A stretch of 64,000 bases of DNA from a virus (lineage: Duplodnaviria; Caudoviricetes), in IMG/VR virus record IMGVR_UViG_3300020577_004340, positions 1 through 64,000 of that record, one strand, 5' to 3'. Below, piece after piece: positions 1,270-58,428 of the stretch; the stretch's first letter is position 1, and each line of letters begins with the position of its first letter. Made by a program: the position numbers and the translations under genes. The notes under the pieces are model-generated. The model did no database searches and had not been told where the DNA came from. It worked only from the letters and a program-made list of their open reading frames with translations.

Positions 1270-2994
1270 ATGGCAATACCAAGTACATTTGCATTAGTTA
1301 AGAAAAGTGATTTTGTTTTAACTCCAATTAAGGTTCATAAGAGTTATTCAATAACCGAGGTAGATACTGAAACAACTTCTAGTGGTTATGTATTACATGA
1401 AGGATATTATTCACGAGTACCTACCGCAATCGGCGCCGATAAAACAAACAATGATCCACGAAATATTACTGATAATTCATATAAACATATTATATGGAAT
1501 TCAATTAATCATAGATATTACAAACATCCATATGATTTAGGTAAGACTTTTGAAGGGTACAATAACAGATATATACATAAGACACTATACCCTTCATGTT
1601 CAATATTGTCAATACCTTATATGAAATATGGAGAAAAAATATTACCTAAATCAGTTAATCTAACAGTATTACCAAATGAGTTAAATATACAAATTAAAGA
1701 TGATGGTTATGGTAATTTATATAGGGTAGATTATGAAGAATCAGGTACATTTATACCTAGAAAGAATATAGTTGGCTATTGGGGATTTAATTCAGAATTT
1801 ACTAATTTTAAAAGTAATACCGATAAATTAATTTCGGGAAACTATAATTTCCAATCGGGACAATTTTCCAATGGAACATCAGTCGTATCAAATATTCAAT
1901 ATGTTCCTGGTGTGGCTAGTGGGTCTGAAGGTAATTATGGACTTGGTATTAAAACAAATGGAACATCATCGTTTGTATTAACTCCAGACCGTCCAGAATT
2001 TAATTTCGATAATTCAGACGAATTTAATATTAGTTTTTGGGTATATTCGTCAAATGATACTGGGTATAAACCATTAATTACAAAAAGAGGAACTAAATTT
2101 ACCAATAATCTAGGGGTGAATCCAAAAACAGTTGGTTCAGGACAAGTAACTGATTCATTACATGTTAGTAGTTCGTATATTGATACATATGTTGATATGA
2201 GTAATCCATATGGTGTATATCCATATGAATTTGTTATGATAGATTCTGATGTTGAATTTAGAAGATGTGATGGGATTAAATTGTTTTCTTTAGCTGCAAC
2301 AACAATACCTAATCAATGGAATCATTTTTCAGTTACTCGTTTTTGGGATTCGATTGATAATTGTTTCCGAATTGCTCTATTTTTTAATGGAGTGTTATGG
2401 GATACCGATATCGACCCAACAGACAATCCAATTAATACCAATGCAATTTTATTTGGTAATTACAATCAATTACCTTTCCCATCTAATGATTTCGAGTATG
2501 CTCCAGTTATAATGGATGAAATTTATATATGTAATAGTTCATTTTATTCTGGAGATAATAATGGAATAACATCATCATCTTTTCATACGAATTTAAATTC
2601 ACAAATTAGTATTTATAATACACCTATTGTTGGTAATGTATTCTATCGTCAGGGGGTGATTGTATTAAATCAAAGAGACGAAACTGATTTTACAGCATTA
2701 TTGAATTATCCATTTAATTTAGAATATAAAGGAACACACACTATATATCAATATGATGTATTATGTAGAATAAAGAAAGGTGATTTCAATTTATCATTAA
2801 ATCCATCAGCCAGAAAATCAGCTAAATCAGATATGATTTTAGATGATATGACAGGGTCATTGTTAGCACCATATGCAACTTCAATTGGGTTGTATAATGA
2901 TAAAAATGAATTATTAGTGATAGGAAAATTAGGTCAAGCTATTCAAATGCGAGAAGATGTTGACATTAATATAGTTGTTAGATGGGATATATAA
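1270..2994 (+). CDS. Virion structural protein with LamG/concanavalin-like domain
   Basis: IVGYWGFN, FNISFWV, NQWNHFSVTR, IALFFNG and MDEIYI LamG motifs. C-terminal PYATSIGLYNDKNELLVIGKL is paralogous to ORF1. Confidence 0.7.
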   Translation: MAIPSTFALVKKSDFVLTPIKVHKSYSITEVDTETTSSGYVLHEGYYSRVPTAIGADKTNNDPRNITDNSYKHIIWNSINHRYYKHPYDLGKTFEGYNNRYIHKTLYPSCSILSIPYMKYGEKILPKSVNLTVLPNELNIQIKDDGYGNLYRVDYEESGTFIPRKNIVGYWGFNSEFTNFKSNTDKLISGNYNFQSGQFSNGTSVVSNIQYVPGVASGSEGNYGLGIKTNGTSSFVLTPDRPEFNFDNSDEFNISFWVYSSNDTGYKPLITKRGTKFTNNLGVNPKTVGSGQVTDSLHVSSSYIDTYVDMSNPYGVYPYEFVMIDSDVEFRRCDGIKLFSLAATTIPNQWNHFSVTRFWDSIDNCFRIALFFNGVLWDTDIDPTDNPINTNAILFGNYNQLPFPSNDFEYAPVIMDEIYICNSSFYSGDNNGITSSSFHTNLNSQISIYNTPIVGNVFYRQGVIVLNQRDETDFTALLNYPFNLEYKGTHTIYQYDVLCRIKKGDFNLSLNPSARKSAKSDMILDDMTGSLLAPYATSIGLYNDKNELLVIGKLGQAIQMREDVDINIVVRWDI

Positions 2995-3051
2995 TGAAAA
3001 AATACAAGTTAAATATAATTTAGAAATTGAAATTCAAAAATAAGGTATAGT

Positions 3052-3228
3052 ATGGATGCTAGACAAAAATATAAACTAAAAATAGATTCAGCAAAATTAT
3101 TGGTTCAGATATATACATTAATGTTAAAGAGAGTTGATGAAATGGATAGTGATAAAAAACAACGACTTACTGACCAAATATTACAGATACAGAATAAAAG
3201 AAACCGAATTAATTCACAAATAAAGTAA
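3052..3228 (+). CDS. Small hypothetical protein (58 aa, helical), not in ORF track
   Basis: ATG 3052 to TAA 3228 (MDARQKYKLKIDSAKLL...), AAGGT upstream, fills the gap. Confidence 0.5.
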   Translation: MDARQKYKLKIDSAKLLVQIYTLMLKRVDEMDSDKKQRLTDQILQIQNKRNRINSQIK

Positions 3229-3230
3229 TT

Positions 3231-3677
3231 ATGAGTCATTGGATATATCAAGATAAAATAATTGAAGATTTACCAATAGGTATAGTTGGATTTGTGTATA
3301 AAATTACTAATATTGAGACTGGTAAAATGTATATTGGTAGAAAATATGCCACCTCTAGAAAAAGAAAGGCATTAACTAAAGCACAAAAAATATCTGGCAG
3401 GAAACGTAAAGATGTAATTGTCACTGAAAGCAATTGGGCAACATATACCGGTTCAAATAAGTATCTAAATTCAGAAATTGAAGCATTGGGTAAAGATAAA
3501 TTTAAGTTTGAAATTTTATATTTTGGAAAAACTAAAGGGGTCGTAAATTACATTGAAGAAACATTGCATCACAAATTGGATGTGATATTGAATGAAAATT
3601 ATTATAACGAATGTATTGGTCCAAGAAGATTTATGGCATTACGGTATAATAAAGAATTACAAGGATTATTACTATGA
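3231..3677 (+). CDS. GIY-YIG nuclease
   Basis: GFVYKITN...KMYIGRK, Y-x-GS, EILY, conserved E and YYN. Confidence 0.8.
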   Translation: MSHWIYQDKIIEDLPIGIVGFVYKITNIETGKMYIGRKYATSRKRKALTKAQKISGRKRKDVIVTESNWATYTGSNKYLNSEIEALGKDKFKFEILYFGKTKGVVNYIEETLHHKLDVILNENYYNECIGPRRFMALRYNKELQGLLL

Positions 3678-4162
3678 AATTAATTACAATATTAAATAAA
3701 ATAGTAGAATCCGGAATTATTGCGTATGGAGTTAATAAAATAGTTGAATTGACTAAGAACTATATTAAAGATAATAATCCAGATTTAATTACACAATTAA
3801 AAGAGATGTTAATTTATGATACCGATTACAAATCATTATTAACTGAAAAATATAAAAATAATTCAATTTTGTATAGGGGAATTGGAGGAAAAGGGCCACG
3901 ACCATCTATAGACGAAATATTATTTACAGAGAAAGAACAATTATACAAATCTACTACTAAATCATATGATATCGCAAAAAAATATGCGTTGTCCGATAAA
4001 CCATCCTGGTCTTACATAATACAATATAATACAAATCCTAATACAATAATTTTGGATATCGATTTGTATAATACTCTACACAATGTAAATATTAAGAACG
4101 AGGAAGAGGTAATAATTAATATTCACGAATGTGTATCTTTAGAAATAATAACTGTTAAATAA
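3674..4162 (+). CDS. ADP-ribosyltransferase, R-S-E clade (Alt/Mod-like)
   Basis: LYRG, STTKSYDIAKKYA and NEEEVII catalytic motifs. N-terminal MKLITILNKIVE propeptide-like segment. Confidence 0.7.
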   Translation: MKLITILNKIVESGIIAYGVNKIVELTKNYIKDNNPDLITQLKEMLIYDTDYKSLLTEKYKNNSILYRGIGGKGPRPSIDEILFTEKEQLYKSTTKSYDIAKKYALSDKPSWSYIIQYNTNPNTIILDIDLYNTLHNVNIKNEEEVIINIHECVSLEIITVK

Positions 4163-4212
4163 TTTGGATATTTGAGATTTTTTTTGTATTATGTTATACA
4201 AATGAATATATT

Positions 4213-5175
4213 ATGACTGAATTGGTTCCATTATTGGAAATGGTTCTTGGGGAAAGTGTTGAAAAAAACAAAAATAATTATGCCTTTACATGCCCATTTT
4301 GCCATCATTATAAAAAGAAATTAGAGGTTAATATTCGAAATTCTATGTGGAATTGTTGGGTATGCCAAGCAAAAGGCAAACAGATAATACATTTACTCAA
4401 GAGATTGAATGTATCCAACGCCACACTTGAATTATATAGAAAGATAGTACCGTCAGAATCTTTATTCACTGAATATAAGAAAAAAGATTCACTTGATAAT
4501 TTATTTGATACTGAAGTTAATGATATAATTACTCGTGTAAATTTACCAAAAGAATATATTCCATTATACGAGCCATCCAAAAATTTTTATTATAAAACAT
4601 GTATTAATTACCTATCAGACCGCGGTGTGTTTATAGATGATATTTTTAAATACCGTCTAGGTTATTGTATTGATGGTTTATACGCTGGAATGATAATATT
4701 TCCAAATTATAATTCCGATGGAGTATTGAATTTCTTTTCTAGTCGTTCATACATGCGAGGCTCAAACACAAAATTTAGAAATAATGATATATCTAGAAAT
4801 GTAATTGGGTTTGAATTACAGATATCACCATCTCAACCACTAATATTGGTGGAATCGGCTTTGGATGCTATTGTAATTAAACGCAACGCTTCACCATTGT
4901 ATGGTAAACAATTATTATCTTCCATTAAAGAATATTTATTAATAAACGAGGTAGAGGATGTGTATATATGCTTAGATGCCGATGCACTTCAAGACACTAT
5001 TGCTATTTCAGAATATTTAATTAACAATGGAATAAATATTTATTTTGTAAAATTACCCGATGACGAAGACCCAAATTCATTGGGTTATACGAAAATGTGG
5101 CAATTGATTGAAAGTACACCAAGATTAGAATTGGGTGATTTATTTACAACAAAAATTCAGAAGTTATTATGGTAA
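4213..5175 (+). CDS. DNA primase (Zn-binding + TOPRIM)
   Basis: CPFC...CWVC zinc knuckle, LVESALDA, ICLDADA and DEDPN TOPRIM motifs. Confidence 0.85.
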   Translation: MTELVPLLEMVLGESVEKNKNNYAFTCPFCHHYKKKLEVNIRNSMWNCWVCQAKGKQIIHLLKRLNVSNATLELYRKIVPSESLFTEYKKKDSLDNLFDTEVNDIITRVNLPKEYIPLYEPSKNFYYKTCINYLSDRGVFIDDIFKYRLGYCIDGLYAGMIIFPNYNSDGVLNFFSSRSYMRGSNTKFRNNDISRNVIGFELQISPSQPLILVESALDAIVIKRNASPLYGKQLLSSIKEYLLINEVEDVYICLDADALQDTIAISEYLINNGINIYFVKLPDDEDPNSLGYTKMWQLIESTPRLELGDLFTTKIQKLLW

Positions 5176-8100
5176 TTGATAAAATATATCATATTGCAGA
5201 TGTTCATATACGAAATTTAAAGAGGCATCGTGAATATAAAATAGTCTTTGATAGATTATTTGAATATATCAAGTCAACGAAGACGGAAAATTCAATTATT
5301 TATCTGGCTGGGGATATAGTACATTCTAAGAATGAAATGTCACCTGAATTGATACGCTTAGTATCATATTTCTTAAAAGGGTGCACACAATTATTACCTA
5401 CAGTCTTGATTATTGGAAATCATGATACTAATTTAAATAATGAAACTAGGTTAGATGCACTTACACCAATTGTTGATAATTTAAATTTATCCAATTTATA
5501 TTATTGGAAAGACAATGGAGTATATGAATTAGGAGGCGTTCATTTTTCAGTATTTTCAATATTTGCAAATCCAGATGAATGGATTAAGGCGAGTGATATT
5601 ATAGGAAATTACAAAATAGCATTACATCATGGAGCAGTTAACTCGGCAATTACTGATTTAAAGCACGTCATCAATAATGAGTATGTTAATACAAATGTAT
5701 TTAATGGGTTCGATTTAACTTTATTAGGAGATATACATAAAAGACAATTTTTAGATGAAAATAATACAATTGCATATCCAGGTTCGTTGATACAACAAAA
5801 TCATGCGGAGCTATTAGACCATGGTATTTTAGTTTGGGATTTAAAAACAAAGAAATCGGAATATGTGCCAATTAAAAATGATATTGGTTACGTAACAGTT
5901 GACATTGACAATGGTAAAATTGTTACCCCGAAAGAAGTTATAACGAACTATCCTGAAAAAATTAGATTGCGTTTACGTTATACAAACACACAACAAAAAG
6001 ATTTAAACAAAATAATAGATATTTTTAAAAAGAAATATTCAATTATAGAAATTTCATTACAGAAATCTCACGGTAATGAAATAAGTCAATATCATAATAC
6101 AACTAATATCGGTGATGTTCGTGATATAGAATTTCAAAATAATTTAATAACAGAATATCTAACAAAAATTGATGTTAATAAAACTATTGATATTGATAAA
6201 ATACGTCATATCAATCGTGTTATGAATAGCAAATTAATATTAGATGATGTTGTGATACGAAATGTAATTTGGCGACCATTAAAATTCTCTTTTTCCAACA
6301 TGTTTTCTTATGGTGAGGGAAATGTGTACGATTTTAATAAGAGAGGGGTTCAAGGAATTTATGGAAGTAATGCTATTGGTAAATCATCTTTGTTGGATGC
6401 AATTACATTTTGTTTATATGATAAATGTACTAGAACATTTAGAAGTTCGGATATAATTAACAATAAAAAGAATACATTTAAATGTAAATTGAATTTCATA
6501 CTGGATGAAGTTGAATATATTATAGAGAGAATTGGGGAAAGAAATAAAAGAGTGCCTGAAAATGTTAAAGTCAATGTTAATTTTTGGAAAGTAGGCGAAG
6601 ATGGGGAATTAATATCATTAAATGGTCAGGATAGAGACCAAACTAATAAAGTAATTCGTTCATATATTGGTACATATGACGACTTTTTATTAACGGCATT
6701 GTCATCACAAAATGATAGTAAGAATTTTGTATTTAAATCACAACGAGAACGGAAGGATTTATTGAATTCATTTTTAGGAATTTCAATATTCGATTCATTA
6801 TACAATCTTACTAGAAATGAAATAAAAGGTAAACGAGAATATTTGAAAATGTTGGAAATTGATTTAGGCTCAACGAACCATATCGATTTATTAAGTTCAA
6901 TTGAAAACACAAATAGTAAATTCCAACAGTACTCATCATCGTTTAATGATTATGAAAATACGGCAACTAAATACAATGATAAAATATTAGAATTGACTAA
7001 TAAAATTAATCCTAATATTCAATTAATTGATAGTCACAAATTAAATATTGATATTGATACAAATAATTCAAATTTAGTAACTAAAGAACAAGAATTAGCA
7101 ACTCAAATTGAATTATTGCAACGATACGTTTCTGAACAAAATATGTTTGAAGTATTATTGAGTTCATATGATAAATCTAATTTACTGTTAAGTAAAAACA
7201 AGTTAGATGAACGAACTAGTAAATTTGTTGAATTGGATGGGAAGCGTTTAGTATTGGAAAGTAAAATTGAATCTTTACAAACAGAAATAACTAAATTAGA
7301 GAATCATAAATTTAATCCGGACTGTGAATTTTGCATTCAGAATGAATTTGTTAAATCAGCTCAACGTGCATCGATACAATTACCAATTACTATTAAAGAA
7401 CATTTTACATTAAAAAATGATATCAATTCAATTAGTGTTGAAATAACATCTTTAAAGGAAGACGAAGCTAAATTAAATGAATTACTTCAACTTGAAACTA
7501 ATATTATTACTAATAGACATAATATTGTAATTACAGAGAATAAAATTGATTCTTTAAAGAAAGATTTGAAACGTCTAGAATCAAAACATATTGAATTGAA
7601 TAATTTATTAAATAAATTCGAATTACAAAAAAAGGAAATTGAACTTAATAATAGATACACAACAGAAATTTCGGAATTAAATCAGTCGTATGTAAAAATT
7701 AAAGAGAAAGTAAAAACTACACATGCGTCAATGATTGATTTAAATTCTAGTCTAATAACATTACAAAATCAATATTCGGCATTTAAAGAAAAACAAGCAA
7801 AATTAACAGAAGTTTGGAAAGAAATTGAATCGTATGATTATTATTTACAGGCGATATCGAAAGATGGGGTGCCGTATTTATTATTGGAAAAAATATTACC
7901 AGTTATAGAAATTGAAGTGAATACAATATTAAATCAATTGGTAGATTTTACAGTAACATTATCAACTGATGATAAAAATAATATTAATTGTTATTTGTTG
8001 TATGGAACAAGTGATAAATGGCCTGTAGAATTATCTTCTGGAATGGAAAGATTTGTCGTATCGATTGCCACTAGAATAGCATTAATTAATATTACAAGTT

Positions 8101-8321: not shown

Positions 8322-11300
8322 TCCAGAATCAGAAGTTTAGTTCCAACATATCAGAGTTTAAAAGGAATATTCCATATCGAGATGCTTCAGTGTCATCGGA
8401 TAGTTATTTTCGTCTATTTGACGTACCTTCAAGATTATTTTTAGGTAAAAATTCATTTAGAATTCGAATAAATAAAGATTATGTTGCACCTAATTCACTG
8501 ATATACATTGACATATTAGATTCTACAGGTAAGCCAATATATCATGAAATATCATCATATTTAGGTGAAGACGATTCTAGATTGGTTGTTGTTAACATTT
8601 ATGAGAATACCCCACCAGGGGAAGCCACTATAATGATTGCTGGCAGAATAACTTATAATGTTGGTACCAAGCAATCATTACCGTATAATAATGATGAAAC
8701 AAGTTTTGATTTTAAAGACATCCCAAATCTTCTTTGGGAAAAAAAGGTATTGGTTGTACCAACTGTACAAAATCTAGAGGAAATTGTATATTTTGCACCA
8801 CCAAATATCAATTATAAAGAGCGTACCGAAGTATTCAATAGATTACCATTATTGAATAGTCGTTATGTGAATTTCAGTGGAAGTGCAACAGCATCTATTT
8901 CATTGAAATCTACAATCAATCCATACCAATATTCAAACTCAAGTAAATTTAATACTTCCAGAGAAGTTGATAGGTTTGTTAAAGATGTAGATCCAGAATA
9001 TACTGGTGATTACTTAGTGAGCAAGCAAACGCAATTACCTAAGTATTCAGAGTTATCCACAATATTTGCAAGTGGATTTGAATTCATTCCAAGTATGGTT
9101 GGTGGACAATTAGTTATTAGAAATATCAATGATTTCTTATTAGTGCCATCTAGTAGTGTATCAAGTATAATTCCAGACTTTTCATGTAGTATCATTGAAA
9201 TTTTGGATAAAACTACTGCTAAAATTGATAATGGATTTTATGCACAAGTGGATGGAATTTCTTACACTAGTATATTAAATGCAACTAATTTCACTGCATC
9301 ATATTATACAAAAGATGTAACAATACAATCCCAATATTCAGAATCATTTTTGGAATTGCAATTTAATCAACTTGAACCAGTTGCTGGAATAGTAGATACA
9401 GTTAAATTATCATATAAAAGTTTTGGATCATTTGGGGATTTTACTACCATTGGTGAATTTGCCATTAAAGAACAAAACATTCTAGTTGATTCATCATCTA
9501 TTGTACCAACAAAATTAGAGATAATTGAAAAACCAATTGGCCAACTAGATGATTGGACTGAATATTCTACGTATTGGAATATTTACAAAAATCCAAATTT
9601 CGACTTATATTACAACTTCAGTCAGTCAATATCATTTGAAAGTGGTGTATCGTTAATTTTCACGGCTTCTGCTGCATTATCTACTGAAAATGGATACTTA
9701 GTGTATACTAATCTAAAAAATGCCTTTAGACCTATTGTAAATGAGAATACTGAATATAAATTGGAAATATCCGCCAGGGTACATCAAAGACCAACTTCAT
9801 CTTTAATTGATGATGCTAGGATAAGCCAGATTGATGTATACATTTCTGGATCAAGTGTTATCAGTGATATAGTACATCAGCCTAATATAATGGCACCAAT
9901 TAAAAGTGATTCTTTTGGTTCGTATATAGGTAGTATTACTAACAATACTGGTAATACACAATTAAATTCCAAGCTGTATTTTAAAACATTATCAACAGCA
10001 AATATAACACCAACATTTGTTGTAAGATCTGGGCAATTTTGGGAAATCAAAGATATCAAACTAATACCTAGAAATGAATCTGGGTATAGCCCAAATCAAG
10101 CTAAATTACAAGTTCCATTAAATACATTCAAGACCAATACTGAACTAATTCTTAAAGCAGAATATCTAAATTCAGCTGGTAGAAAGAGCGAATATGAAAC
10201 TAGATTGATTGGTGTTAATTTTACTGGTTCTGGAATCAATCAAATTTTACGAGAAAGTAATATCATTTCTGGTTCTGAACAAGTGCGTGATATACTTCAA
10301 GGTGATGGTGCTACATACATAACACTGAGGGATCAACATGGAGATCCATCCCCATTACCTGGAACTGTTCAAATATATAATAGTGGATCAGTTATATACT
10401 ATCAAGATGAAACTGGGTCTAAATATCCATTAGGTGGACCAGCATCAGGTAGTGGTGGAACTGATTGGTCAGCATCAGGTAGTGGTGGAACTGATTGGTC
10501 TGCAATGACTAACAAACCAGCTGGATTAGTTTCTGGATCTAGTCAGTTGGCATCTGAAATTTCTGGGGCATTTACTTTAGTATCAGCAAGTCTTTCAAGT
10601 GATAAACTAAATAAAATTGGAAGTGGTGTATATTCAAGTTCTACACAATTACCTTCTGGAATTATTAGTTCTAGCACCCAATTACCAGCTAATTTGTTAT
10701 CAAGTTCGGTACAAATAGCTTCTGATATTTCAGGTGCATTTACACTAGTGTCTGCATCACTAGCTTCCGAAAAACTAAACAAAATTGGTAGTAATGTGTA
10801 TTCAAGTTCAACACAACTACCATCAGGTATAATTTCATCATCAGCTGGATTTTTAAGTTCGAGTGCTCAAATTGCATCTCAAATTTCTGGAGCCTTTACA
10901 AGCGTATCAAGTTCACTAGCTTCAGAAAAATTAAATAAAGTAGGTAGCAATGTTTATTCAAGTTCTAATCAATTACCAAGTGGTTTAATATCAAGTTCAG
11001 CTGGTTTATTGAGTTCGTCAGCACAGATATCAAGTGATATTTCTGGGGCATTTACATTGGTATCATCAAGTCTTGCAAGTGAAAAATTAAATAAAGTAGG
11101 AAGCAATGTATATTCTAGTTCCAATCAATTACCTTCTGGAATTATAAGTAGTTCAGTTGGATTTTTAAGCTCATCAGCACAAATATCTACTGATATATCA
11201 GGAGCATTTAATTCAATATCTAGTAGTCTAGCTTCTGAAAAATTAAATAAAGTAGGAAGCAATGTATATTCTAGTTCCAATCAATTACCTTCTGGAATTA

Positions 11301-20908: not shown

Positions 20909-22816
20909 ATGAGGACAATTGTAATATATCCAGGTAGATTTCAACCATTTTGCCCCCATCATTTTGCAGTTTATAGAAACTTAGTAAAAAAATTCGGGGA
21001 TAATGTTTATATTACCACAAGTAATAAGGTAGACACATTATCTCCTTTGAATTTTAATGAAAAGAAATCTATTATCACTCAATATGGAATACCGGCGGAT
21101 AAAATTGTACATACTACGCAACCATATAAATCAACGGAATTACTTAGTCGATATAATCAAAATGAATATTCTGTTATATTTGCCTTAGGTAAAAAGGACG
21201 CTGACAGGATTCAATTTACAAAAAAGGACGGTACTTCAGGATATTTTTCTCTATACAAAGATGGAGTTGAATTACAACCTATCAATCAAACTGGATATGT
21301 ATATATTACACCTAATATAACAATTAAGATGCCTGATAACACAGAAATGTCAGGGACTAAAGTTAGAGGTTGGATTGGAAAATCGACACCGGAAAGTTTT
21401 AAAAAATTATTTGGTTGGTATAATCCAGGGTTATACAATTTAATGAAAAAAAAATTTAATGTTGACGAAGACATTAATGTTCCTATTAATGTCGGGGATA
21501 CAGTATTAGGTGGCAGATTCAAGAATAAGAAAATAAAAATAAAGGATATCGGAAAGAATGATAAGGGAGATATTACCATTAATGGTAAACCTCTTTTAAA
21601 AGTTCGAATTAATTCTAAAATTAATGAAAGTGGGACGGGTGGCCATATTCAACATCCTTACGACGATTTAACATTGAAATTTTCAGACATTAAAGAATTA
21701 ATTAAAACGACATTATCTGGGCATATGACGATAAAGAATGCAACTGAAAAAATGGACGGGCAATCTTTATCGATAACATATATTAATGGGCAATTTAGAT
21801 GTGCTAGAAATAAGACTGATATATTAAATCCAATGTCATTACATGATTTAATTTCAAAATTTGATGGGAGAGGTACCATCTCGGATAGTTTTACAAAAGC
21901 AATGCAATTTATGATCAAGAATTTAGACAGACTGTCTGATTCTTTATTGAATAAATTTTTTAAGAATGGAAAAGTATTTCTTGGTATTGAAATTATATAT
22001 GAATCAAATAAAAATGTATTGGATTATAGTGGGTCTTATATTGTATTTTTAAACATGAATGAATATGATGAAGATGGTAAAATAATACAAATACGACCAG
22101 ATTATGCTAAAAAATTAAAATCAATTATTGACAATGTTAATGATGATTTGGACGATGAATTTAATATTAGATTACCAAATAATATTCAGTTAAACAAGGC
22201 AGTTAATTATAATGAAGATTTGACAAAATTTTTGGGGATGGTCACTAAATTACAGAACAAATTTCAATTAAGTGATTCCGATACTATCGGCGATTATTAT
22301 TCATCGTATTATCACATATTAATTAATAAACTATTTCCAAAATTGACAACGGATGCTACTGATATATTACTTAGACGTTGGGTATATGACAAGAAAACAA
22401 TCAAGTTAAATTCAAATTTATTTACAGTATATTATGAAGAATTAAAACAATTTGAAAATGAACAAGTTCCTAAGATAAATTCTACTATTAAAAGTAAATT
22501 TGAATTTATTTTTTTACAATTGGGCATAGAAGTTTTATCTAATATAACATCATTTTTTGCACCCAATCCATCGGATACTATTCAAAAAATTAGAAAAGAT
22601 TTACTTGGTGTGATTAAACAAATTAAATCGAGTGACGACCCTAGAAAATTGGATTTATTGAAAACACAATTAGGCAAGATAAAGAAACTTGGTGGATTCA
22701 ATAAAATAGTCCCCTCAGAGGGAATTGTATTCAAGTACAATGGAAAAACATATAAATTAACAGGTATGTTTGCTCCAATTAATCAGCTATTAGGTATAAT
22801 TAAATATAATAGATAA
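20909..22816 (+). CDS. Cytidylyltransferase-like domain fused to a polynucleotide-ligase-like nucleotidyltransferase domain
   Basis: YPGRFQPFCPHH (HxGH-like) and MSGTKVR; then TEKMDG (motif I KxDG), GIEII, SEGIVF (IV), YKLTG (V). Confidence 0.7.
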   Translation: MRTIVIYPGRFQPFCPHHFAVYRNLVKKFGDNVYITTSNKVDTLSPLNFNEKKSIITQYGIPADKIVHTTQPYKSTELLSRYNQNEYSVIFALGKKDADRIQFTKKDGTSGYFSLYKDGVELQPINQTGYVYITPNITIKMPDNTEMSGTKVRGWIGKSTPESFKKLFGWYNPGLYNLMKKKFNVDEDINVPINVGDTVLGGRFKNKKIKIKDIGKNDKGDITINGKPLLKVRINSKINESGTGGHIQHPYDDLTLKFSDIKELIKTTLSGHMTIKNATEKMDGQSLSITYINGQFRCARNKTDILNPMSLHDLISKFDGRGTISDSFTKAMQFMIKNLDRLSDSLLNKFFKNGKVFLGIEIIYESNKNVLDYSGSYIVFLNMNEYDEDGKIIQIRPDYAKKLKSIIDNVNDDLDDEFNIRLPNNIQLNKAVNYNEDLTKFLGMVTKLQNKFQLSDSDTIGDYYSSYYHILINKLFPKLTTDATDILLRRWVYDKKTIKLNSNLFTVYYEELKQFENEQVPKINSTIKSKFEFIFLQLGIEVLSNITSFFAPNPSDTIQKIRKDLLGVIKQIKSSDDPRKLDLLKTQLGKIKKLGGFNKIVPSEGIVFKYNGKTYKLTGMFAPINQLLGIIKYNR

Positions 22817-23723: not shown

Positions 23724-24018
23724 AGTTTATTTGTTTAGTATTATTGCTTTGTTATTAATAGTAATTTATGGTGGTTACACAATACATCAAAAAAATACAG
23801 AAATTTCTAATCTGAAATTGGCTATTATTAACAATCATCTATCACAGATTGATACATTGAAACCAGTAATTGATTCATTGAATTATAAAATTGTTATAAC
23901 GTTAAATGATATTGAATATCAAAAAATATATTTAGACTCATTACAATCTAAATTAAAAAACGCTAAACAAACAGAAATTTCTATTGATAGTGCATTAAAA
24001 TTATTGAATAATTTATGA
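23713..24018 (+). CDS. Membrane-anchored coiled-coil protein (possible spanin-like)
   Basis: N-terminal TM, heptad pattern, AAGGAGG upstream. Confidence 0.45.
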   Translation: MNIKVYLFSIIALLLIVIYGGYTIHQKNTEISNLKLAIINNHLSQIDTLKPVIDSLNYKIVITLNDIEYQKIYLDSLQSKLKNAKQTEISIDSALKLLNNL

Positions 24019-24410
24019 GAAAAACTATAATATATATTATCTTATTAATGTGTAATATATCAATTTTTGGTCAATCAATTGATACTTGTTTGACAAAAGA
24101 AAAAATTGTACATATAGCAACCACAATTAATGAATTAAAACAAACGGATTCTATACATGTATTACAGATTTCTACATTGAATAAATTGGTCCATAATTAT
24201 GAATTGGTTAATAGTTTGAATTCTGAAAAAATAGAAATCCAAAATAAAGAATTGAGTATATATAAAGAAGCTATACTCGATATGCAATCTTTAATGAAGA
24301 GTCAAAATCCAAAATGGTATGAAACAAAAACAAGTAATATATTATTAGGATTTATTATTGGTACTGTTAGCATATATACCGGGTCATTAATAATTAACAA
24401 TATACGATAA
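24015..24410 (+). CDS. Exported protein with C-terminal TM (possible spanin partner)
   Basis: Sec signal ending FGQ, coiled coil, KWYE plus hydrophobic tail; ATGA overlap with the previous gene. Confidence 0.45.
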   Translation: MRKTIIYIILLMCNISIFGQSIDTCLTKEKIVHIATTINELKQTDSIHVLQISTLNKLVHNYELVNSLNSEKIEIQNKELSIYKEAILDMQSLMKSQNPKWYETKTSNILLGFIIGTVSIYTGSLIINNIR

Positions 24411-24412
24411 TA

Positions 24413-25258
24413 ATGAATCCAGATTTAAGAGCAGCGATAGCGGTAGAATTTCAGAAATGTAGCATGGATTATGTGTATGCTACAAAAAAATACCTGAAAA
24501 TAGAGCACCCTTTGAAAGGTAAGATTCCGTTTCACTTGTTTCCATTTCAGGAAAAAACTCTAACTGAATTACAAAAACATCGTTTTAATGTAGTATTGAA
24601 ATCTAGACAGATGGGTATATCTACGTTATTAGCTGCTGATTCTTTATTAAAAATGTTATTCAATGAAAATTTTAAAGTTTTAGTTATAGCTACGACACAA
24701 GATGTAGCAAGAAATTTAGTGCATAAAGTTAAAGTTATGCACGAAAATCTTCCAGTTTGGATGCGAGGTAAGATTGTAGATAATAATAAGTTATCAATAT
24801 CATTTAAGAACGGGTCATCAATAAAAGCCGTATCAAGTTCAGCCCATTCAGGACGTTCGGAGGCGTTATCTTTATTAATAATTGATGAAGCTGCATTTGT
24901 TGACCGAATTGATACAATTTGGGGGGCAGCCTTGCCAACATTATCAACGGGTGGTTCGGCAACTTTATTATCAACACCAAATGGAATTGGTAATTTATTC
25001 CATAAGATTTGGGAAGAGGCAGAAAGTGGTTTAGTGACAGAGGGATTAGAGCCATTTAATCCAATTAAGTTGAAATGGGATTTACACCCCGAAAGAAATC
25101 AAGCTTGGAGAGACCAACAAACATATGCACTAGGAGAACGTATAGCATCACAGGAATGCGTTTCAGGTGATACACTTATTACAATAAGAAATAATGAAAC
25201 TCTTGAAATTGAAACTATTACTATTTTTGAATTAGAAAACAGGTTGAAAAATGAGTAA
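24413..25258 (+). CDS. terL: Terminase large subunit N-part (ATPase) plus split intein N-fragment
   Basis: LFPFQ, KSRQMGIST Walker A, LLIIDEAAF Walker B, STPNG. Ends in IntN CVSGDTLITIR... starting at 25157. Confidence 0.93.
   Translation: MNPDLRAAIAVEFQKCSMDYVYATKKYLKIEHPLKGKIPFHLFPFQEKTLTELQKHRFNVVLKSRQMGISTLLAADSLLKMLFNENFKVLVIATTQDVARNLVHKVKVMHENLPVWMRGKIVDNNKLSISFKNGSSIKAVSSSAHSGRSEALSLLIIDEAAFVDRIDTIWGAALPTLSTGGSATLLSTPNGIGNLFHKIWEEAESGLVTEGLEPFNPIKLKWDLHPERNQAWRDQQTYALGERIASQECVSGDTLITIRNNETLEIETITIFELENRLKNE
25157..25255 (+). mobile_element. Split intein N-fragment (33 aa)
   Basis: Block A CVSGDTLITI follows extein ...IASQE. Confidence 0.88.
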
Positions 25259-26150
25259 TTTATTAAAATGTAAGATGTGTAACCAATATGAAGCTAGACA
25301 ATTATTTCAACACTTAAAAAGTAAACATGGTATTACTACATCTGAATATAGAAACAAATTTGGTAAAAATGAAATTGTTCAGATTGGATTTACTCCAAGT
25401 GATACTCGTGTAAAACCAAATAATATTCAATCAGAACAAGTTAAAAAAACGTATATTGGAATTGAACATAAACTTAATTTAATTGTAAATATTTATACAA
25501 AAGAAGAAGTTAGAAAGATATTACTTGAAAATGACAGATTTAAAAGATATTTTGGGAAAAGTAAAAATCGTACATTGATTGTGGAAGATGCTAAATTATA
25601 TAAATCCATTAAAGAGCATACTAAAATTCTAGATGAAATTGCAATTGATAAAATAAATTTTAATTACTTGTCAAAAAGAATTAAATTTATTGTAGATTAT
25701 AATTATGATGAAAGATTACTGAAATGCCGGTGTGGAAATTCTTTTACATTTAATAATGGTTGTAGGCTTTGTGCCGATAACAAAAATAATTTTCTAGGGA
25801 AAACACATACACAAGAAACCTTGACTAAATTAAGGTTATCTGCTATTAAAAGAATAGAAAGACAAATTGGACAATTAGCTCCTGCATATAATATTAATTC
25901 AATTGCAATAATTGAAAAATTCGGAAAGGAAAATGGATTTAATTTCCAACATGCAGAAAATGGTGGAGAATTTAAAGTTCCAGGATTAGGTTATTGGGTT
26001 GACGCTTATGATAGTAAAAAGAATGTTGTGTTAGAAATCGATGAACGCCAACATTTCGATAAATTTGGAAATTTAATTGAACGAGATGTTAAGAGACAAA
26101 ATGAAATAATTTCAGTGCTCGGTTGCCAATTTTATAGAATAAAATTATGA
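25251..26150 (+). CDS. Free-standing homing endonuclease (Zn fingers + NUMOD3 + Vsr/EDxHD-like domain)
   Basis: CKMC..H..H, CRCG..CRLC, NNFLGKTHTQETLTKLR, HAENGGE..YWVDAYD..VLEIDERQH..RDVKRQ. Confidence 0.8.
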   Translation: MSNLLKCKMCNQYEARQLFQHLKSKHGITTSEYRNKFGKNEIVQIGFTPSDTRVKPNNIQSEQVKKTYIGIEHKLNLIVNIYTKEEVRKILLENDRFKRYFGKSKNRTLIVEDAKLYKSIKEHTKILDEIAIDKINFNYLSKRIKFIVDYNYDERLLKCRCGNSFTFNNGCRLCADNKNNFLGKTHTQETLTKLRLSAIKRIERQIGQLAPAYNINSIAIIEKFGKENGFNFQHAENGGEFKVPGLGYWVDAYDSKKNVVLEIDERQHFDKFGNLIERDVKRQNEIISVLGCQFYRIKL

Positions 26151-26488
26151 TTTTAAAAAATAATACATATGCAGTTTTAACTCCAGACGGGTTCCGTGAA
26201 TTCGATGGATTGGCTATTAATACTCATACAAATTATTTACAAATTAATTTTACCGATGGGAATAGTATTAAATGTTCTAGTAATCATAGATTTTTCACAG
26301 ATAATTTTACTACTATCTTTGCAAATGAATTAGTCATAGGAAGTGTGATTGTTGGCGATAATTCATTATTAATAGTACAATCAATTATACAACAATCAAT
26401 TATACAAGTTAATGATGCTGTAAACTTATATGATTTATTTTCCGTTGATGGGCACAAATATTATACACAAGGGATACTAAGTCATAAT
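26147..26488 (+). mobile_element. Split intein C-fragment (114 aa)
   Basis: VLTPDGF, block B CSSNHRF, block F LYDL, terminal SHN followed by Cys+1. Confidence 0.9.
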
Positions 26489-27339
26489 TGTGATTGTGAT
26501 TTCATTTCTTCTGGACATACAGTAATACCGTCAGATATTTTACAATGGTACACTAATACACATGTTCAAGACCCAATTCAAACTAGAGGTGCTAATAATG
26601 ATGTTTGGATATGGAAATTCGTTGATTATACAAAAAGTTATGTTATAACGGCTGACATAGCTAGAGGAGATGGTGCGGATTTCTCAACATTCCACATATT
26701 TGATATTGAAACACTTGAGCAGGTTGCGGAATTTAAAGGACAATTAGGAACTCGTGAATTTGGTAATATGTTAGTTGCATATGGTCATGAATATAATACA
26801 GCATTAATTGTTCCAGAAAATATCCAGAAAATAAAAATGTTGGATGGGATACTGTACAACAAATTATTGATTTAAAATATCCAAATTTATATTATTCATT
26901 TAAATCAGACCCATTTTTAGACCCATCAATTCACTTAGCAAAGTCGTACGATTTAAAAGATAGAAAAGACATGGTTCCTGGTTTTACAACCACACCAAGT
27001 ACTCGTCCGGCCGTTGTATCTAAATTACAATTATATTTCGAACAAAAAATTCCTATAATACATTCAAAAAGATTGATATCAGAATTATATGTATTTATGT
27101 GGATTGATGGGAAACCACAAGCTCAAAGAGGTTATCACGACGATTTAGTAATACCTTGTGGAATAACATTTTTTATCCGTGATACTACGATTAGACTTAG
27201 ACAATTAGGTATAGATTTAACAAAAAAAACACTTAATTCGACACATAAATTAGTACACAAACCAACTGTCCAACAAAATTCTGCTTGGGAACACCGAACA
27301 GCCAGAGGGACAGTTGAAAAATTAAATTGGTTATTATAG
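26147..27339 (+). CDS. terL: Intein C-fragment plus terminase large subunit C-part (nuclease), frameshifted by an 11-bp duplication
   Basis: CDCDFISSG, ADIARGDGADFS, GYHDDLV. Removing one tccagaaaata copy gives VPENKNVGWDTVQ..., in frame with the 26971 ORF. Confidence 0.9.
26812..26833 (+). repeat. Perfect 11-bp tandem duplication causing a frameshift
   Basis: tccagaaaata x2. Confidence 0.95.
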
Positions 27340-29160
27340 ATGGCAAATTCATTTTCAGATTTTGTTAATAGATTATTTTCTAGTAAAGTAATTCTCAAGA
27401 AAATGCCGTCTGGTAGAATAAAGACGGTTGATTTAAACAGATTACAATCTGTAGGTAATTACACTACTGGTAGATTTAAGGGGTTACGACTTAATAGTAA
27501 TGGTCAAGCTAGCTTCTTTGGTAGTGGATATTCGACAGATACACAATCTGCTCAATTAGATGTCATGCGTAATTTGTTGTATATAGATTACGAATTGATG
27601 GATAATGACCCAATATTAGCAGGGGCATTGGATATATATGCGGATGAGGTAACAACTAGAAATGCGCATGGTGATGTATTAACTATTAATTGCCCAAACG
27701 ATAAAATAAAACAAATACTTTATAATTTACATTATGAAATTTTAAATATTGAATTTAATTTATGGAGTTGGGTTCGTACATTATGTAAATTCGGTGATTT
27801 GTATTTATACACCCCCACATTACCAACTGTCGGCGTAATAGATGCTATTCCAATTCACCCATCATTAATGAATAGACGTGATGATTCGGGTCCAAATAAG
27901 GATGAAACTAAATTTCTATTTGAACCGGCCAATTCCCAAATTACATATTCATTGGCGAAATCATCATTTGATATCCAAGAAATTGCCCATTTCAGATTAT
28001 TAACAAATACAAACTTCTTACCGTATGGTAAATCTATGTTAGAGGGGGCTAGGAAAGTTTTTAAACAACTTTCTATGATGGAAGATGCTATGTTAATACA
28101 TAGAATTATGAGAGCCCCAGAACGTAGGATATTTAAAATTGATGTGGGTAACATTGCACCTGAAGAAGTAGATGGTTATATGGAAGAAATTACCAATTCC
28201 ATGAAAAAAACTCCATACGTTGGAGATGATGGTGAATATAATCTTAAATATAATCTAATGAATATGTTAGAGGATTATTATTTACCAGTGAGAGGTGGGG
28301 ATACTGGTACTGATATTAGCTCATTACCTGGACTTACTAATGAGGGGCAAATAGACGATATTGAATATTTACGTAATAAAATGATGGCGTTCCTTAAAAT
28401 ACCTAAATCATATATGGGTTATGATGGAGAAGGTGGAAAGACAACATTGCCAGCTGAAGATGTACGTTTTGCAAGAACAATAGAACGTTTACAAAAAATG
28501 GTTACCGCTGAATTATATAAGATATCAGTAGTACATTTAATGACGCAGGGTTATACTGGTGAAGAATTATACGAGTTTTCATTGACATTGTCCCCGCCAT
28601 CAATGATATATGAAAGACAACGAGTCGATTTATTGAATGAAAAAGTTAATTTGATATCAAATATTAAAGAGCAAAAGTTATTATCAAATAAATATATATA
28701 TGAAAATATATTGAATCTCACGCCAGAAGAATGGAAGTTAGAAGAAGATTTGATAATAGAAGATTTAAAATTACGTTTTAGGCAAACACAAATTGAAGAA
28801 GAAGGTAATGACCCAGCCGTTACAGGTAAATCATTTGGTACTCCGCATGACATATCAGCATTACAAGTAGCATCAAAATTGTCAGGTACTGGAGAAAATG
28901 AAAAAACGTTTGATATAAGTACTGATAAACGACATGATAATGAAGGTCGTCCAGAAAAACCAGGGTCATTTGAACGTGCTAAAGATTCTGATTTAGGTTA
29001 TGACCCATTTGGGCGTAAAGAAATGAATAGAAATGAAGGAATGCAAAGACTGATAAAGGCATTGAATAAAGATATTGCTAAATCAATTAAAACTACACCG
29101 ACACATAAAGACCCTGATTCTGGTATAGAAATGTTAAACGAATCACTTTTATTGGACTAA
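27340..29160 (+). CDS. Portal protein (T4 gp20-like)
   Basis: QLSMMEDAMLIHRIMRAPERRIFKIDVGN, MLEDYYLPVRG, LPG. Confidence 0.95.
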   Translation: MANSFSDFVNRLFSSKVILKKMPSGRIKTVDLNRLQSVGNYTTGRFKGLRLNSNGQASFFGSGYSTDTQSAQLDVMRNLLYIDYELMDNDPILAGALDIYADEVTTRNAHGDVLTINCPNDKIKQILYNLHYEILNIEFNLWSWVRTLCKFGDLYLYTPTLPTVGVIDAIPIHPSLMNRRDDSGPNKDETKFLFEPANSQITYSLAKSSFDIQEIAHFRLLTNTNFLPYGKSMLEGARKVFKQLSMMEDAMLIHRIMRAPERRIFKIDVGNIAPEEVDGYMEEITNSMKKTPYVGDDGEYNLKYNLMNMLEDYYLPVRGGDTGTDISSLPGLTNEGQIDDIEYLRNKMMAFLKIPKSYMGYDGEGGKTTLPAEDVRFARTIERLQKMVTAELYKISVVHLMTQGYTGEELYEFSLTLSPPSMIYERQRVDLLNEKVNLISNIKEQKLLSNKYIYENILNLTPEEWKLEEDLIIEDLKLRFRQTQIEEEGNDPAVTGKSFGTPHDISALQVASKLSGTGENEKTFDISTDKRHDNEGRPEKPGSFERAKDSDLGYDPFGRKEMNRNEGMQRLIKALNKDIAKSIKTTPTHKDPDSGIEMLNESLLLD

Positions 29161-56121: not shown

Positions 56122-56429
56122 TGAGATATTCAGATAATGTACAGTTAATTAATGAATTGAGGCGGGGTAAAACTAAACGTAGATACGAAACGATGTTATA
56201 TCCTACTATCCCAATAAGTGATAAAGATACTTATATAATATCGACCGCAGGGGCTAGATGTGATAATTTGGCATATGAATACTATCGAGATCAGCGATTG
56301 TGGTGGGTTATATCCAGGGCAAATGATTTACCAGTTGGGGCTTTTATGATTCCTCCTGCACGTAGAATTAGAATTCCTGATATTAATTCATTTCAAATTA
56401 AAACTTTAATACAAGATAATCAATATTAA
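56121..56429 (+). CDS. LysM-like baseplate protein (gp53/tail X-like)
   Basis: RCDNLAYEYY.D..LWWVISRAN...RIRIP. Confidence 0.8.
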   Translation: MRYSDNVQLINELRRGKTKRRYETMLYPTIPISDKDTYIISTAGARCDNLAYEYYRDQRLWWVISRANDLPVGAFMIPPARRIRIPDINSFQIKTLIQDNQY

Positions 56430-58428
56430 TGAATCCATTCAGACGAAATCCAACAGGAAACGCAATATCTGATTTAAAAGCTAGGGCTTCTAAATATAGA
56501 AATGGGCCACATTACGATGCGGCTACTAGAAATCCGGCATGGATTCGTATTACTGGGAAAGGTCCAAAAGCAGGAAAGTCGGGAACTTATACAATACCAA
56601 AAGAACAAAATACATTTGCTGAGGCATACGGCAATCATTTTAAACCATCCCCAATACTATCAGATGCTACAATAACATTTGGTGGAGATTTTGGGTTGAC
56701 TATGACTTTAGAGGCAACTATTGAATGTCATTTAAAATCCGATTTTGAATTAGTAGAGAAGGCATTTTTATATCCGGGGTCAATAATTGATTTATCATTT
56801 GGTTATGGGAATCCTAGACCATCTGGATATTCTGACGGTCATAAATTTACTGGATTCAGAACTGCTACATATTCATTTAATACAACTGAACAGGGATTTT
56901 GGATTGCAAAATTTAAGGCAGTTGCTCCATCCGAAGCGGCTAAGACATTGGATATGTCAACATCGATATTTGCTAGTAATCTAACGTATTTAGATGGCGG
57001 AAAGACATATAAAGTGCATGGTATAGCTGAATTAATGGCACATGATGCTCAAGTTAATGGTCAGAAATCTATTGATGAATTGGCAGACGGTGAAACAATT
57101 ACCTCATTTAAATCACATGGATATAAAGAATCGCCTGGTGCTTGTGTTGTATTTACATCAGACCATTTAAAATCGGGTGGAGTAATGGCAAACTTCGCAG
57201 CTTCAATGATGGCAACGATTGGCGGTAGTACTTCAAGTGAAGTTACGGAATCTAAGAATATTCCGTATTATACACTTGAATATCTTGTTAACCGGGTAAT
57301 TATGGGTCAATTGAAAGAAACTCAGAACGCAGGAATCCATCCAAAAGATAAAGACGATTTTAAGAAAGTATCAATTAAATTTCATCCTAAATATTCGAAA
57401 TCGATTATAGATTTAAATATTCGAAATCGATTATAGATTTCCATATACAATCAGGGAGTCCAACAAAAATACTTTTATTAGGGTCTTCTTTAGGGGATTA
57501 TTTAAATTCAAAAGGTGCCGGGAAGAATTTTGAGAAAGCTCCTGCTATTAAATTAGGTTCTGTAAAATGTGTCACTAAAACAGAATCAGGTAAGAATGAA
57601 ATCGATTTCAAAAAAATATTAATTGAACGTTCTACTATATTAGCCGCATTAGGTGATATAGATAAAGCAAGACCACAGGCTAATAATACAGATGTTAAAC
57701 AATTTCAAGAAGGTGTTATTAATGTAGAGACCTTTTTAAATAATGTATTCAATCAAATAAAAGCAGCAACTGGTGGGGCAATTGCATTAAGATTAATTCA
57801 AAATCCAGATGAAGGAGATTCAGCAAAATTTGAACAGATTATTATAGATGAGAATTATGGTGTGGCTGATACTCTACAATGTATTGTATTTGACCCAATA
57901 GATGGTGATGGGTCAACTAGAACATGTTCAGTATCTTCCGGTGTAGGGTCACAAGAATATAAAGCTGGAATGTTTGCTGGTGCAATGAGAAAGGGAGATT
58001 CTGTAATGGCGGCTAAAGAAGCTTATTCAGATGTCGAACCCCAACGGGCTATTCAGTATGCCAAAGAAGTAATTAAACAAAAGGAAATAGTCAAAAGCCC
58101 AGGTGCATTAGGAGATTCACATTTTGACGCAGTACAACAAGATGCGTTGATGAATTGTATGGGGTCATTGCGACAAACGAGCCAAAACTCAGATAAATAT
58201 GATTTAAGTATGTATCCTGGAATGGGCATCGATGTATCATTAGACGGGGTTTGGGGGTTTGTTCCAGGAAATGCAATATCATCTACCCAATTAACATCTG
58301 GTTATTTTAAGACGAATTATTTCTTTGTGAAACAAGTTGTTCATACATTTTCCCAGTCAGATTGGGAAACTAAAATATCCGGTATATTATCTTTTTATTC
58401 TAATATTAAATATAATTATTTGAATTAA
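56429..58428 (+). CDS. Baseplate hub-like protein (~657 aa), split by a 26-bp duplication
   Basis: Removing one repeat copy joins the 56429 and 57862 ORFs in frame. FLYPG..I.LSFGY and VSLDG.WG..PGN...FFVKQVVH...WETKISG hub-like motifs. Confidence 0.7.
57389..57440 (+). repeat. Perfect 26-bp tandem duplication causing a frameshift
   Basis: aaatattcgaaatcgattatagattt x2. Confidence 0.95.

Follow-up and report, generated by a model that had tools for sequence, protein, structure and literature searches.

The large terminase gene (terL) of an uncultured T4-type phage is, very probably, a fractured gene, in which a 1332-nt mobile cassette made up of a 33-aa N-terminal intein half (IntN), a 299-aa endonuclease gene and a 114-aa C-terminal intein half (IntC) separates, in frame, the codons of ...IASQE from those of CDCDF.... 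The intein would belong to the AceL-TerL/GOS-TerL/Cat lineage of atypically split inteins, and two short tandem duplications found in the downstream half of the gene are private to this assembly. The DNA that we analysed, hereafter the window, is the first 64 kb (64,000 nt) of the IMG/VR record IMGVR_UViG_3300020577_004340, a single-contig genome of 123,975 bp with 31% G+C and with head and packaging genes of the T4 type. Four open reading frames (ORFs) lie on the + strand within positions 24413-27339 (Table 1), and terL is split between two adjacent same-strand genes, here called the N-gene and the C-gene, whose products jointly cover the whole enzyme. The N-gene overlaps the endonuclease gene by 8 nt (ATGAGTAA), and the endonuclease gene overlaps the C-gene by 4 nt (ATGA). 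A first-pass annotation of the same DNA had described an N-gene ending with a 33-aa IntN, a 299-aa endonuclease ORF with these two overlaps, and a 114-aa IntC with blocks B, F and G ending at SHN/C, all of which we confirmed.

The host gene is supported as a T4-type large terminase (TerL) by several sequence matches. The N-gene matched Pfam Terminase_6N (E=1.9e-9) and phrog_5989 (E=3.5e-40), and the second part of the C-extein matched the terminase family phrog_24361 (E=2.3e-8). In an AlphaFold model of ORF 3, residues 127-242 fitted the nuclease domain of T4 gp17 (3cpe residues 364-520) with Z=10.7. When the region was compared with cultured phages by blastn, the only match was the TerL of Microcystis phage Mel-JY01, at 65% identity. 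One profile, phrog_36964, continues across the break, its positions 436-625 corresponding to N-gene residues 71-248 and its positions 624-706 to C-gene residues 113-198. When we aligned the separate pieces by tblastn with 25 related IMG/VR loci, we found 19 intein-less alleles in which the codon of N-gene residue 248 directly adjoins the codon of the first C-extein residue. The junction reads ...AAAQE|CDCDF(L/A/I)(S/T)SG in most of these alleles, and those of the L005-L018 type read GCAGCACAGGAA|TGTGAYTGTGAYTT. Because the exteins abut in the intein-less alleles, excising positions 25157-26488, which is in frame, restores the conserved terminase sequence, and the predicted spliced junction in the window is ...IASQE-CDCDFISSG.... 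The extein boundary IASQE/CDCDF proposed in the first-pass annotation is thus borne out by the exact abutment and by the continuity of phrog_36964. Judging from the offsets in the model, the insertion site would lie close to where the ATPase domain meets the nuclease domain.

IntN, with the sequence CVSGDTLITIRNNETLEIETITIFELENRLKNE, follows directly after ...IASQE, and its Cys1 is N-gene residue 249. Its identity with the 32-aa IntN of one of the related loci (L001, IMGVR_UViG_3300042554_001515) is 64%, and its pattern C-[VL]-x-G-[DET]-[TS] is common to L001, to a second related locus (L003, IMGVR_UViG_3300046779_002535, 1815-4560) and to gp17A of Aeromonas phage PX29. A search of the PDB with the 33-aa IntN alone gave nothing at E<=10, the query being too short. 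In IntC we recognized block B (S44-x-x-H47), block F (D96...H103) and block G (H113-N114), followed by Cys+1 (C115). Eight aligned family members, two of them from cultured phages, share S44, H47, D96, H113, N114 and C115 without exception. The class-1 catalytic set is complete (C1, H47, D96, H103, H113-N114 and C115), and most of it is invariant in our alignments A2 and A3. The first-pass annotation had singled out block B for being SxxH rather than TxxH. The difference is real but not unusual, since S44 is invariant in the eight aligned members and Cat has the same motif, which makes SxxH the normal form of block B in this family; Ser75 and His78 of Cat have been cited as functional (PMC11766414).

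The single clear PDB sequence match of IntC was 6dsl_B, the 'Consensus engineered intein CatC' (E=1.1e-12). Likewise, the best match of the ORF 3 model (predicted local distance difference test score, pLDDT, 85) was 6dsl_B, 'Cat with atypical split site', with Z=14.9, a root-mean-square deviation of 1.7 Å over 108 of 118 residues and 37% identity, and ordinary inteins ranked below it (Z ~13). Cat is thus the HINT domain closest to IntC, and both sequence and model support the membership of this intein in the AceL-TerL/GOS-TerL/Cat lineage.

The middle gene has its own frame and is a putative free-standing homing endonuclease gene. We found 455 metagenome homologues of its product, none with a name. 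In an alignment of 32 of them (A1), the invariant positions include C159, C161, C171 and C174, the motifs P-x-Y-N and HAENGGE, and D251, E262, D264, H268 and D279. In the AlphaFold2 model (pLDDT 87), residues 208-299 matched RAP domains (Z=10.3), the catalytic domain of I-Bth0305I (3r3p_A, Z=6.6, 74 of 97 residues) and Vsr (1cw0_A, Z=6.2), and they also resemble many other PD-(D/E)xK-type nucleases (Z=5-7). The arrangement D251...E262-x-D264...H268...D279 resembles D51, F62, H64, H69 and D97 of Vsr, a comparison made by spacing and not by residue-by-residue alignment to I-Bth0305I; the roles of the Vsr residues have been described for the Vsr-like/EDxHD family (PMC2677866, PMC3239194). At the other end of the protein, residues 2-53 resemble the Ros zinc finger 2jsp (Z=4.9), with a Pfam ROS_MUCR match below cut-off (E=0.0014) and a profile match to 2jsp at E=0.08. 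A weak NUMOD3 match over residues 178-194 (E=0.019) was also below cut-off. As the N-terminal finger is missing in about a third of the aligned homologues (proteins of ~241-258 aa), it looks like a modular add-on. When we searched NCBIfam and PHROGs with the endonuclease we obtained no match, and a scan of viral contigs gave no confirmed relative. At the level of fold, we have filed the middle gene as one that may work like an EDxHD homing endonuclease, and the nuclease fold supports the endonuclease call made in the first-pass annotation.

The 25 related loci differ in what they carry at the insertion site. Beside the 19 intein-less ones, three have the same split IntC (the endonuclease gene was seen in L001 and L003, and L002 is cut at IntC), two have a LAGLIDADG intein at the same site (L004 and L019, the latter by similarity only), and one (L025) is cut short of the insertion site. 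This patchy distribution fits a mobile element. In L004 (IMGVR_UViG_3300037264_001396, 2219-4999), an uninterrupted 926-aa TerL contains a LAGLIDADG-type maxi-intein, LAAQE|CFDAETR...VVHN|CDCDF, and since it occupies exactly the same site, two unrelated mobile inteins share one insertion point. In L003 terL is also fractured, with an IntN of 38 aa and a homologous endonuclease of 47% identity, and the intein is displaced downstream by two codons (QECD|CLWGES...SHN|CDF), a position supported by the block A pattern as well as by the extein consensus. No second terL and no second copy of the endonuclease gene were found in the 124-kb genome.

Positions 24000-27800 were also compared with Logan contigs from four runs, each of a different study (river, viral fraction, activated sludge and one unlabelled). 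In run X6, and weakly in run X1, the endonuclease gene carries an in-frame deletion of 264 nt (25637-25900) between 9-nt direct repeats, AATTGCAAT. A matching protein of 211 aa (P0004), recorded from four contigs and identical on both flanks of the gap, is without the zinc knuckle, the NUMOD3-like helix and the PxYN motif. Taken with the pattern among the loci, this deletion would fit the cycle of gain, decay and loss of homing elements.

Table 1. Features of the terL region; positions are those of the window unless residues are given.
Feature	Position	Strand	Description
ORF 1, terL N-gene	24413..25258	+	281 aa
terL N-extein, ATPase domain	24413..25156	+	248 aa, ends ...ALGERIASQE; Terminase_6N and phrog_5989
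IntN	25157..25258	+	33 aa (Cys1, block A CVSGDTLI, block B absent) and TAA stop 25256-25258
ORF 2, putative free-standing homing endonuclease gene	25251..26150	+	299 aa, own frame, different from ORF 1
Ros/MucR-type C2H2 finger, predicted	endonuclease residues 5-38	+	fold and sub-threshold profile matches
Zinc knuckle, then NUMOD3-like helix, predicted	endonuclease, C159/C161/C171/C174	+	alignment, weak Pfam match
Vsr-like nuclease domain, predicted	endonuclease residues 208-299	+	D251, E262, D264, H268, D279 invariant
ORF 3, terL C-gene start	26147..26875	+	242 aa, same frame as ORF 1
IntC	26147..26488	+	114 aa, blocks B, F, G, ends GILSHN; Cys+1 at 26489
15-bp perfect tandem duplication	26377-26406	+	ACAATCAATTATACA x2; adds QSIIQ inside IntC
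terL C-extein, first part	26489..26821	+	C-gene residues 115-225; nuclease domain start through catalytic ...IVPEN; tblastn against 25 loci
11-bp perfect tandem duplication	26812-26833	+	TCCAGAAAATA x2; frameshifts terL-C directly after catalytic ...IVPEN
terL C-extein, second part	26824..27339	+	-1 frame, PENKNVGWDTVQQ... to stop; holds HDD catalytic Asp
ORF 4, terL C-extein remainder	26971..27339	+	122 aa, one base back from the ORF 1/ORF 3 frame

Under the reading that we favor, the three tightly overlapping ORFs would be read from one late transcript, and the short IntN would dock into the near-complete IntC and so finish the HINT fold. Class-1 splicing would then proceed via Cys1, the S-x-x-H of block B, the D and H of block F, and the terminal HN with Cys+1, joining the exteins into a TerL of 527 aa. 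The endonuclease, for its part, would cut the terL gene of co-infecting relatives that lack the intein, close to the codons for QE|CDCDF, and repair would copy the whole cassette into the cut allele. Several points weigh against this account. Trans-splicing and homing are both predicted from family membership and anatomy. Neither the endonuclease alone nor the 32-sequence profile gave a significant PDB sequence match to Vsr or I-Bth0305I, so that the placement of the middle gene depends on a fold match of middling score (Z 6-7) together with the conserved residue pattern. Scans for promoters and terminators gave counts not above those of shuffled controls, and since no such signal exceeded the shuffles, the route of expression is suggested by the ORF overlaps alone. 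The sole late-promoter-like motif, TATAAATA, in 23901-27600 sits on the minus strand. Finally, the C-extein is frameshifted in the window, so its exact sequence would not yield an active terminase, and the run contigs with which we judged this frameshift do not retain rare variants; they demonstrate that the intact form predominates and leave room for a duplicated one.

The first-pass annotation had taken the C-gene as one ORF, which did not hold. The frame that opens at 26147 reads to ...ALIVPEN, continues with unrelated residues and stops at 26875, and homology resumes in the -1 frame from position 26824. This frameshift, which had gone unreported, is caused by the 11-bp tandem duplication. 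All 25 related loci stop matching the 26147 frame at N225, and when we searched them by tblastn the second part of the C-extein was in frame and contiguous with the first in every relative. The product of the C-gene as written in the window would end short of the final catalytic Asp (HDD) in the nuclease. When we compared the run contigs with the window, we found that 11 nt are missing at 26812 from every spanning contig, in four of four runs, and that 15 nt are missing at 26377 from the spanning contigs of X16, X5 and X6, the fourth run being without cover there. Otherwise run X16 is near-identical, with a single difference from the window in 2271 nt. In P0121 and P0122, the nearest relatives at the protein level, the C-gene is intact with 388 aa, ...IVPENKNVGWD... 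is unbroken and the 15-bp insert is lacking; the identity of P0121 with the window over IntC is 75% (80% in alignment A2). This length equals the 393 aa of the window, with one 11-nt copy discounted, minus the 5 extra residues, and the population form of IntC derived from these 388-aa relatives has 109 aa against 114 aa in the window. The population gene is therefore intact, with a C-gene of 388 aa and a TerL of 527 aa (248 + 279) after predicted splicing. The spliced length of about 527 aa given in the first-pass annotation stands for the repaired frame, but not for the window as written.

Both duplications are private to the assembly and reflect a variant that is rare and defective or else an artefact of assembly, two cases that the contigs cannot distinguish. 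It is possible, though we consider it rather unlikely, that the 11-bp duplication is a real mutation and that the sampled particle or genome had a dead terminase, the 15-bp duplication being a product of relaxed selection or of error-prone repair near the cassette. Both duplications are perfect and lie less than 450 bp apart, and perfect tandem duplications with a period of 10-40 number only four in the whole 124-kb genome, two of them in terL-C; cuts by the homing endonuclease and their repair could plausibly cause local slippage. However, neither duplication was present in any contig of the four runs, even in the almost identical X16, and the run contigs break near 26270-26392 and 26865-26976, strain-variable places that are prone to mis-joins by assemblers. 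A compensated frameshift is far less probable. A -1 slip on the A-run ATAAAAATG (26830-26838), by ribosome or by polymerase, would restore a single frame and give ...IVPENIQKIKNVGWD..., with four extra residues after the catalytic Glu. The site is free of stops in the -1 frame, and A_AAA could allow tRNA-Lys to re-pair. However, the canonical X_XXY_YYZ heptamer is absent, the frame runs on without a break in all relatives and population contigs, and the extra residues would adjoin an active-site residue.

The other two perfect tandem duplications of the genome lie at 57388-57439 (26 bp) and 10440-10499 (30 bp). The 26-bp duplication extends across the end of the ORF 56429..57436 and may likewise be a private variant or an artefact. 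We also observed spikes of depth at 25016-25142 and 26667-26920 in the runs; these come from short conserved stretches in contigs of other organisms and were set aside as uninformative.

Least credible of all is the idea that sequencing errors alone divide into three ORFs what is really an undivided intein with an endonuclease nested in it, or a group I intron that carries the endonuclease gene: a contiguous LAGLIDADG intein does occupy the same site in L004, but the N-gene and C-gene of the window share a frame that the endonuclease gene does not, so that two compensating errors would be needed, and the same stop, overlaps and starts are reproduced by contigs of X16 (24000-26270), X1 (24000-25645) and X6 (24373-25636, then 25901-27660). 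Contigs from independent studies thus keep the split, in agreement with the three-ORF layout, rather than one continuous frame, proposed in the first-pass annotation. The same layout occurs in L001 and L003, with intact C-genes of 391 and 385 aa. The group I intron was rejected, since Rfam gave no such intron or any other match at E<=1 in 24000-27700, and since the HINT blocks are in the flanking ORFs and not in an RNA.

The fractured terL that we propose is similar in organization to the fractured genes, among them a phage terminase locus, and to the Vsr-like homing endonuclease genes described by Dassa, London, Stoddard, Schueler-Furman and Pietrokovski (2009, PMC2677866). As in those loci, a conserved phage enzyme gene is broken by a split intein into two same-strand ORFs, and between the halves lies a free-standing endonuclease ORF that runs at its 3' end into the beginning of the downstream one. 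A Vsr-like endonuclease is present in half of the loci of that study, and the gene in the window is Vsr-like by fold. Its overlap with the downstream half is 4 nt, compared with the 6-69 bp reported (PMC2677866). In contrast to those loci, the endonuclease gene of the window also overlaps the upstream half, and because of this 8-nt overlap it is without its own 5' untranslated region, hairpin or late promoter; its product also differs in having a predicted N-terminal Ros/MucR-type zinc finger.

The closest relationship of the intein is with AceL-TerL, GOS-TerL and Cat (PDB 6DSL), for which IntN/IntC sizes of 25/104, 37/115 and 30/104 aa have been reported (PMC11766414). All share TerL as host and a split between blocks A and B. 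The short, block-A-only IntN has 33 aa in the window compared with 25, 37 and 30 aa, and the IntC with blocks B, F and G has 114 aa (109 in the population form) compared with 104-115 aa. The pairing of Cys1 with Cys+1 is that used by AceL and Cat (PMC11766414), and block B is SxxH as in Cat. The differences are a diverged sequence, a source in river and wastewater phage and the 5-aa QSIIQ insert of the window assembly. The +2 residue is Asp in the window and Glu in these inteins, the insertion sites being compared by the start of the C-extein (CE.../CD...) only.

A similar break has been annotated in a cultured phage, Aeromonas phage PX29 (GU396103), whose gp17A and gp17B bear the labels 'putative N-intein' and 'GIY-YIG endonuclease and C-intein'. 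Here too a T4-type TerL is split at the equivalent QE(H)|C, the IntN has 33 aa and the IntC is homologous (25.6% by tblastn). However, the GIY-YIG endonuclease of PX29 is fused in frame to IntC, whereas the window has a separate ORF with a Vsr-like product. On a tentative note, and with more doubt than confidence, we suggest that the QE|C hinge of TerL is contested by interchangeable mobile modules. A single lineage with a short IntN, split in the same loop, would have taken up different endonucleases (an ORF with a Ros finger and a Vsr-like domain in the window, a GIY-YIG domain fused to IntC in PX29), and the two-codon-shifted L003 and the unrelated LAGLIDADG intein of L004 would compete for the same hinge.

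For the endonuclease, the nearest described system is I-Bth0305I and the EDxHD homing endonuclease family (PMC3239194, PDB 3R3P). The predicted domains are laid out in the same way, with DNA-binding modules, among them a NUMOD-like motif, at the N-terminus and a Vsr-like nuclease domain at the C-terminus, and acidic, His and Asp residues are conserved at a spacing that resembles that of Vsr. In both cases the gene lies within an interrupted phage gene, although I-Bth0305I resides in a group I intron of recA (PMC3239194). The two proteins have no detectable sequence similarity, and the link between them is a fold match of Z=6.6 only, with RAP domains scoring higher (Z ~10). The endonuclease of the window also adds the predicted Ros-type finger and the CxC...CxxC knuckle. 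We met no account of a Ros/MucR-type C2H2 finger as a targeting module of EDxHD-type homing endonucleases, but no completed literature search was aimed at it.

The first-pass annotation had regarded fractured terminases with a short IntN as uncommon, and our searches contradict this. An exhaustive search with IntC gave 633 cluster representatives at E<=1e-3, of which 56 reached E<=1e-10 (a word-indexed search returned 2 proteins only), and in 84 of the best 150 the IntC-type domain starts within 15 residues of the protein N-terminus. The motifs at the start of the C-extein fall into groups, namely HN|CEFLGS, HN|CAFI, HN|(S/T)TT and others, which in our reading would represent different insertion sites in TerL, HN|CEFLGS being the one used here. 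Two cultured phages have a related IntC at another TerL site. In the RB49-like Escherichia phage kaaroe (L027, 745-3856), it ends at HN|CAFIQN and lies behind a 583-aa ORF labelled 'hypothetical protein', and in Vibrio phage VPALA (L028, 1928-4228) it is part of a contiguous intein that ends HN|TTVVAA. The arrangement has been known since 2009, is partly annotated in a cultured phage and is abundant in metagenomes.

The element therefore opens no new question. It is predicted to enlarge, by one natural split intein with Cys1/Cys+1 and a short IntN, a family that is valued for protein labelling and semisynthesis, and its source is a mesophilic river and wastewater phage. The intein-less alleles that we identified are possible test substrates for the homing endonuclease. 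For annotation, the terminase should be read as the N-gene and C-gene joined by splicing, and the frameshift at 26812-26833 is best regarded as an assembly error or a private variant rather than as a trait of the phage population.

The neighbourhood of terL has features of its own. The ORF downstream of the region encodes a gp20-type portal protein of 606 aa (Pfam Portal_T4, E=1e-73). The portal gene beside the fractured terL of L001 (L001 positions 3058-6117) encodes 1019 aa, compared with these 606 aa in the window. Its insert, from ...GLCISPDTLIPL to ...VIIHNSGKAT, includes an HNH-like segment and has the look of a full intein in the portal protein. A 635-aa ORF at 20909-22816, which precedes the packaging genes, opens with a nucleotidyltransferase-like motif, IVIYPGRFQPFCPHHF.

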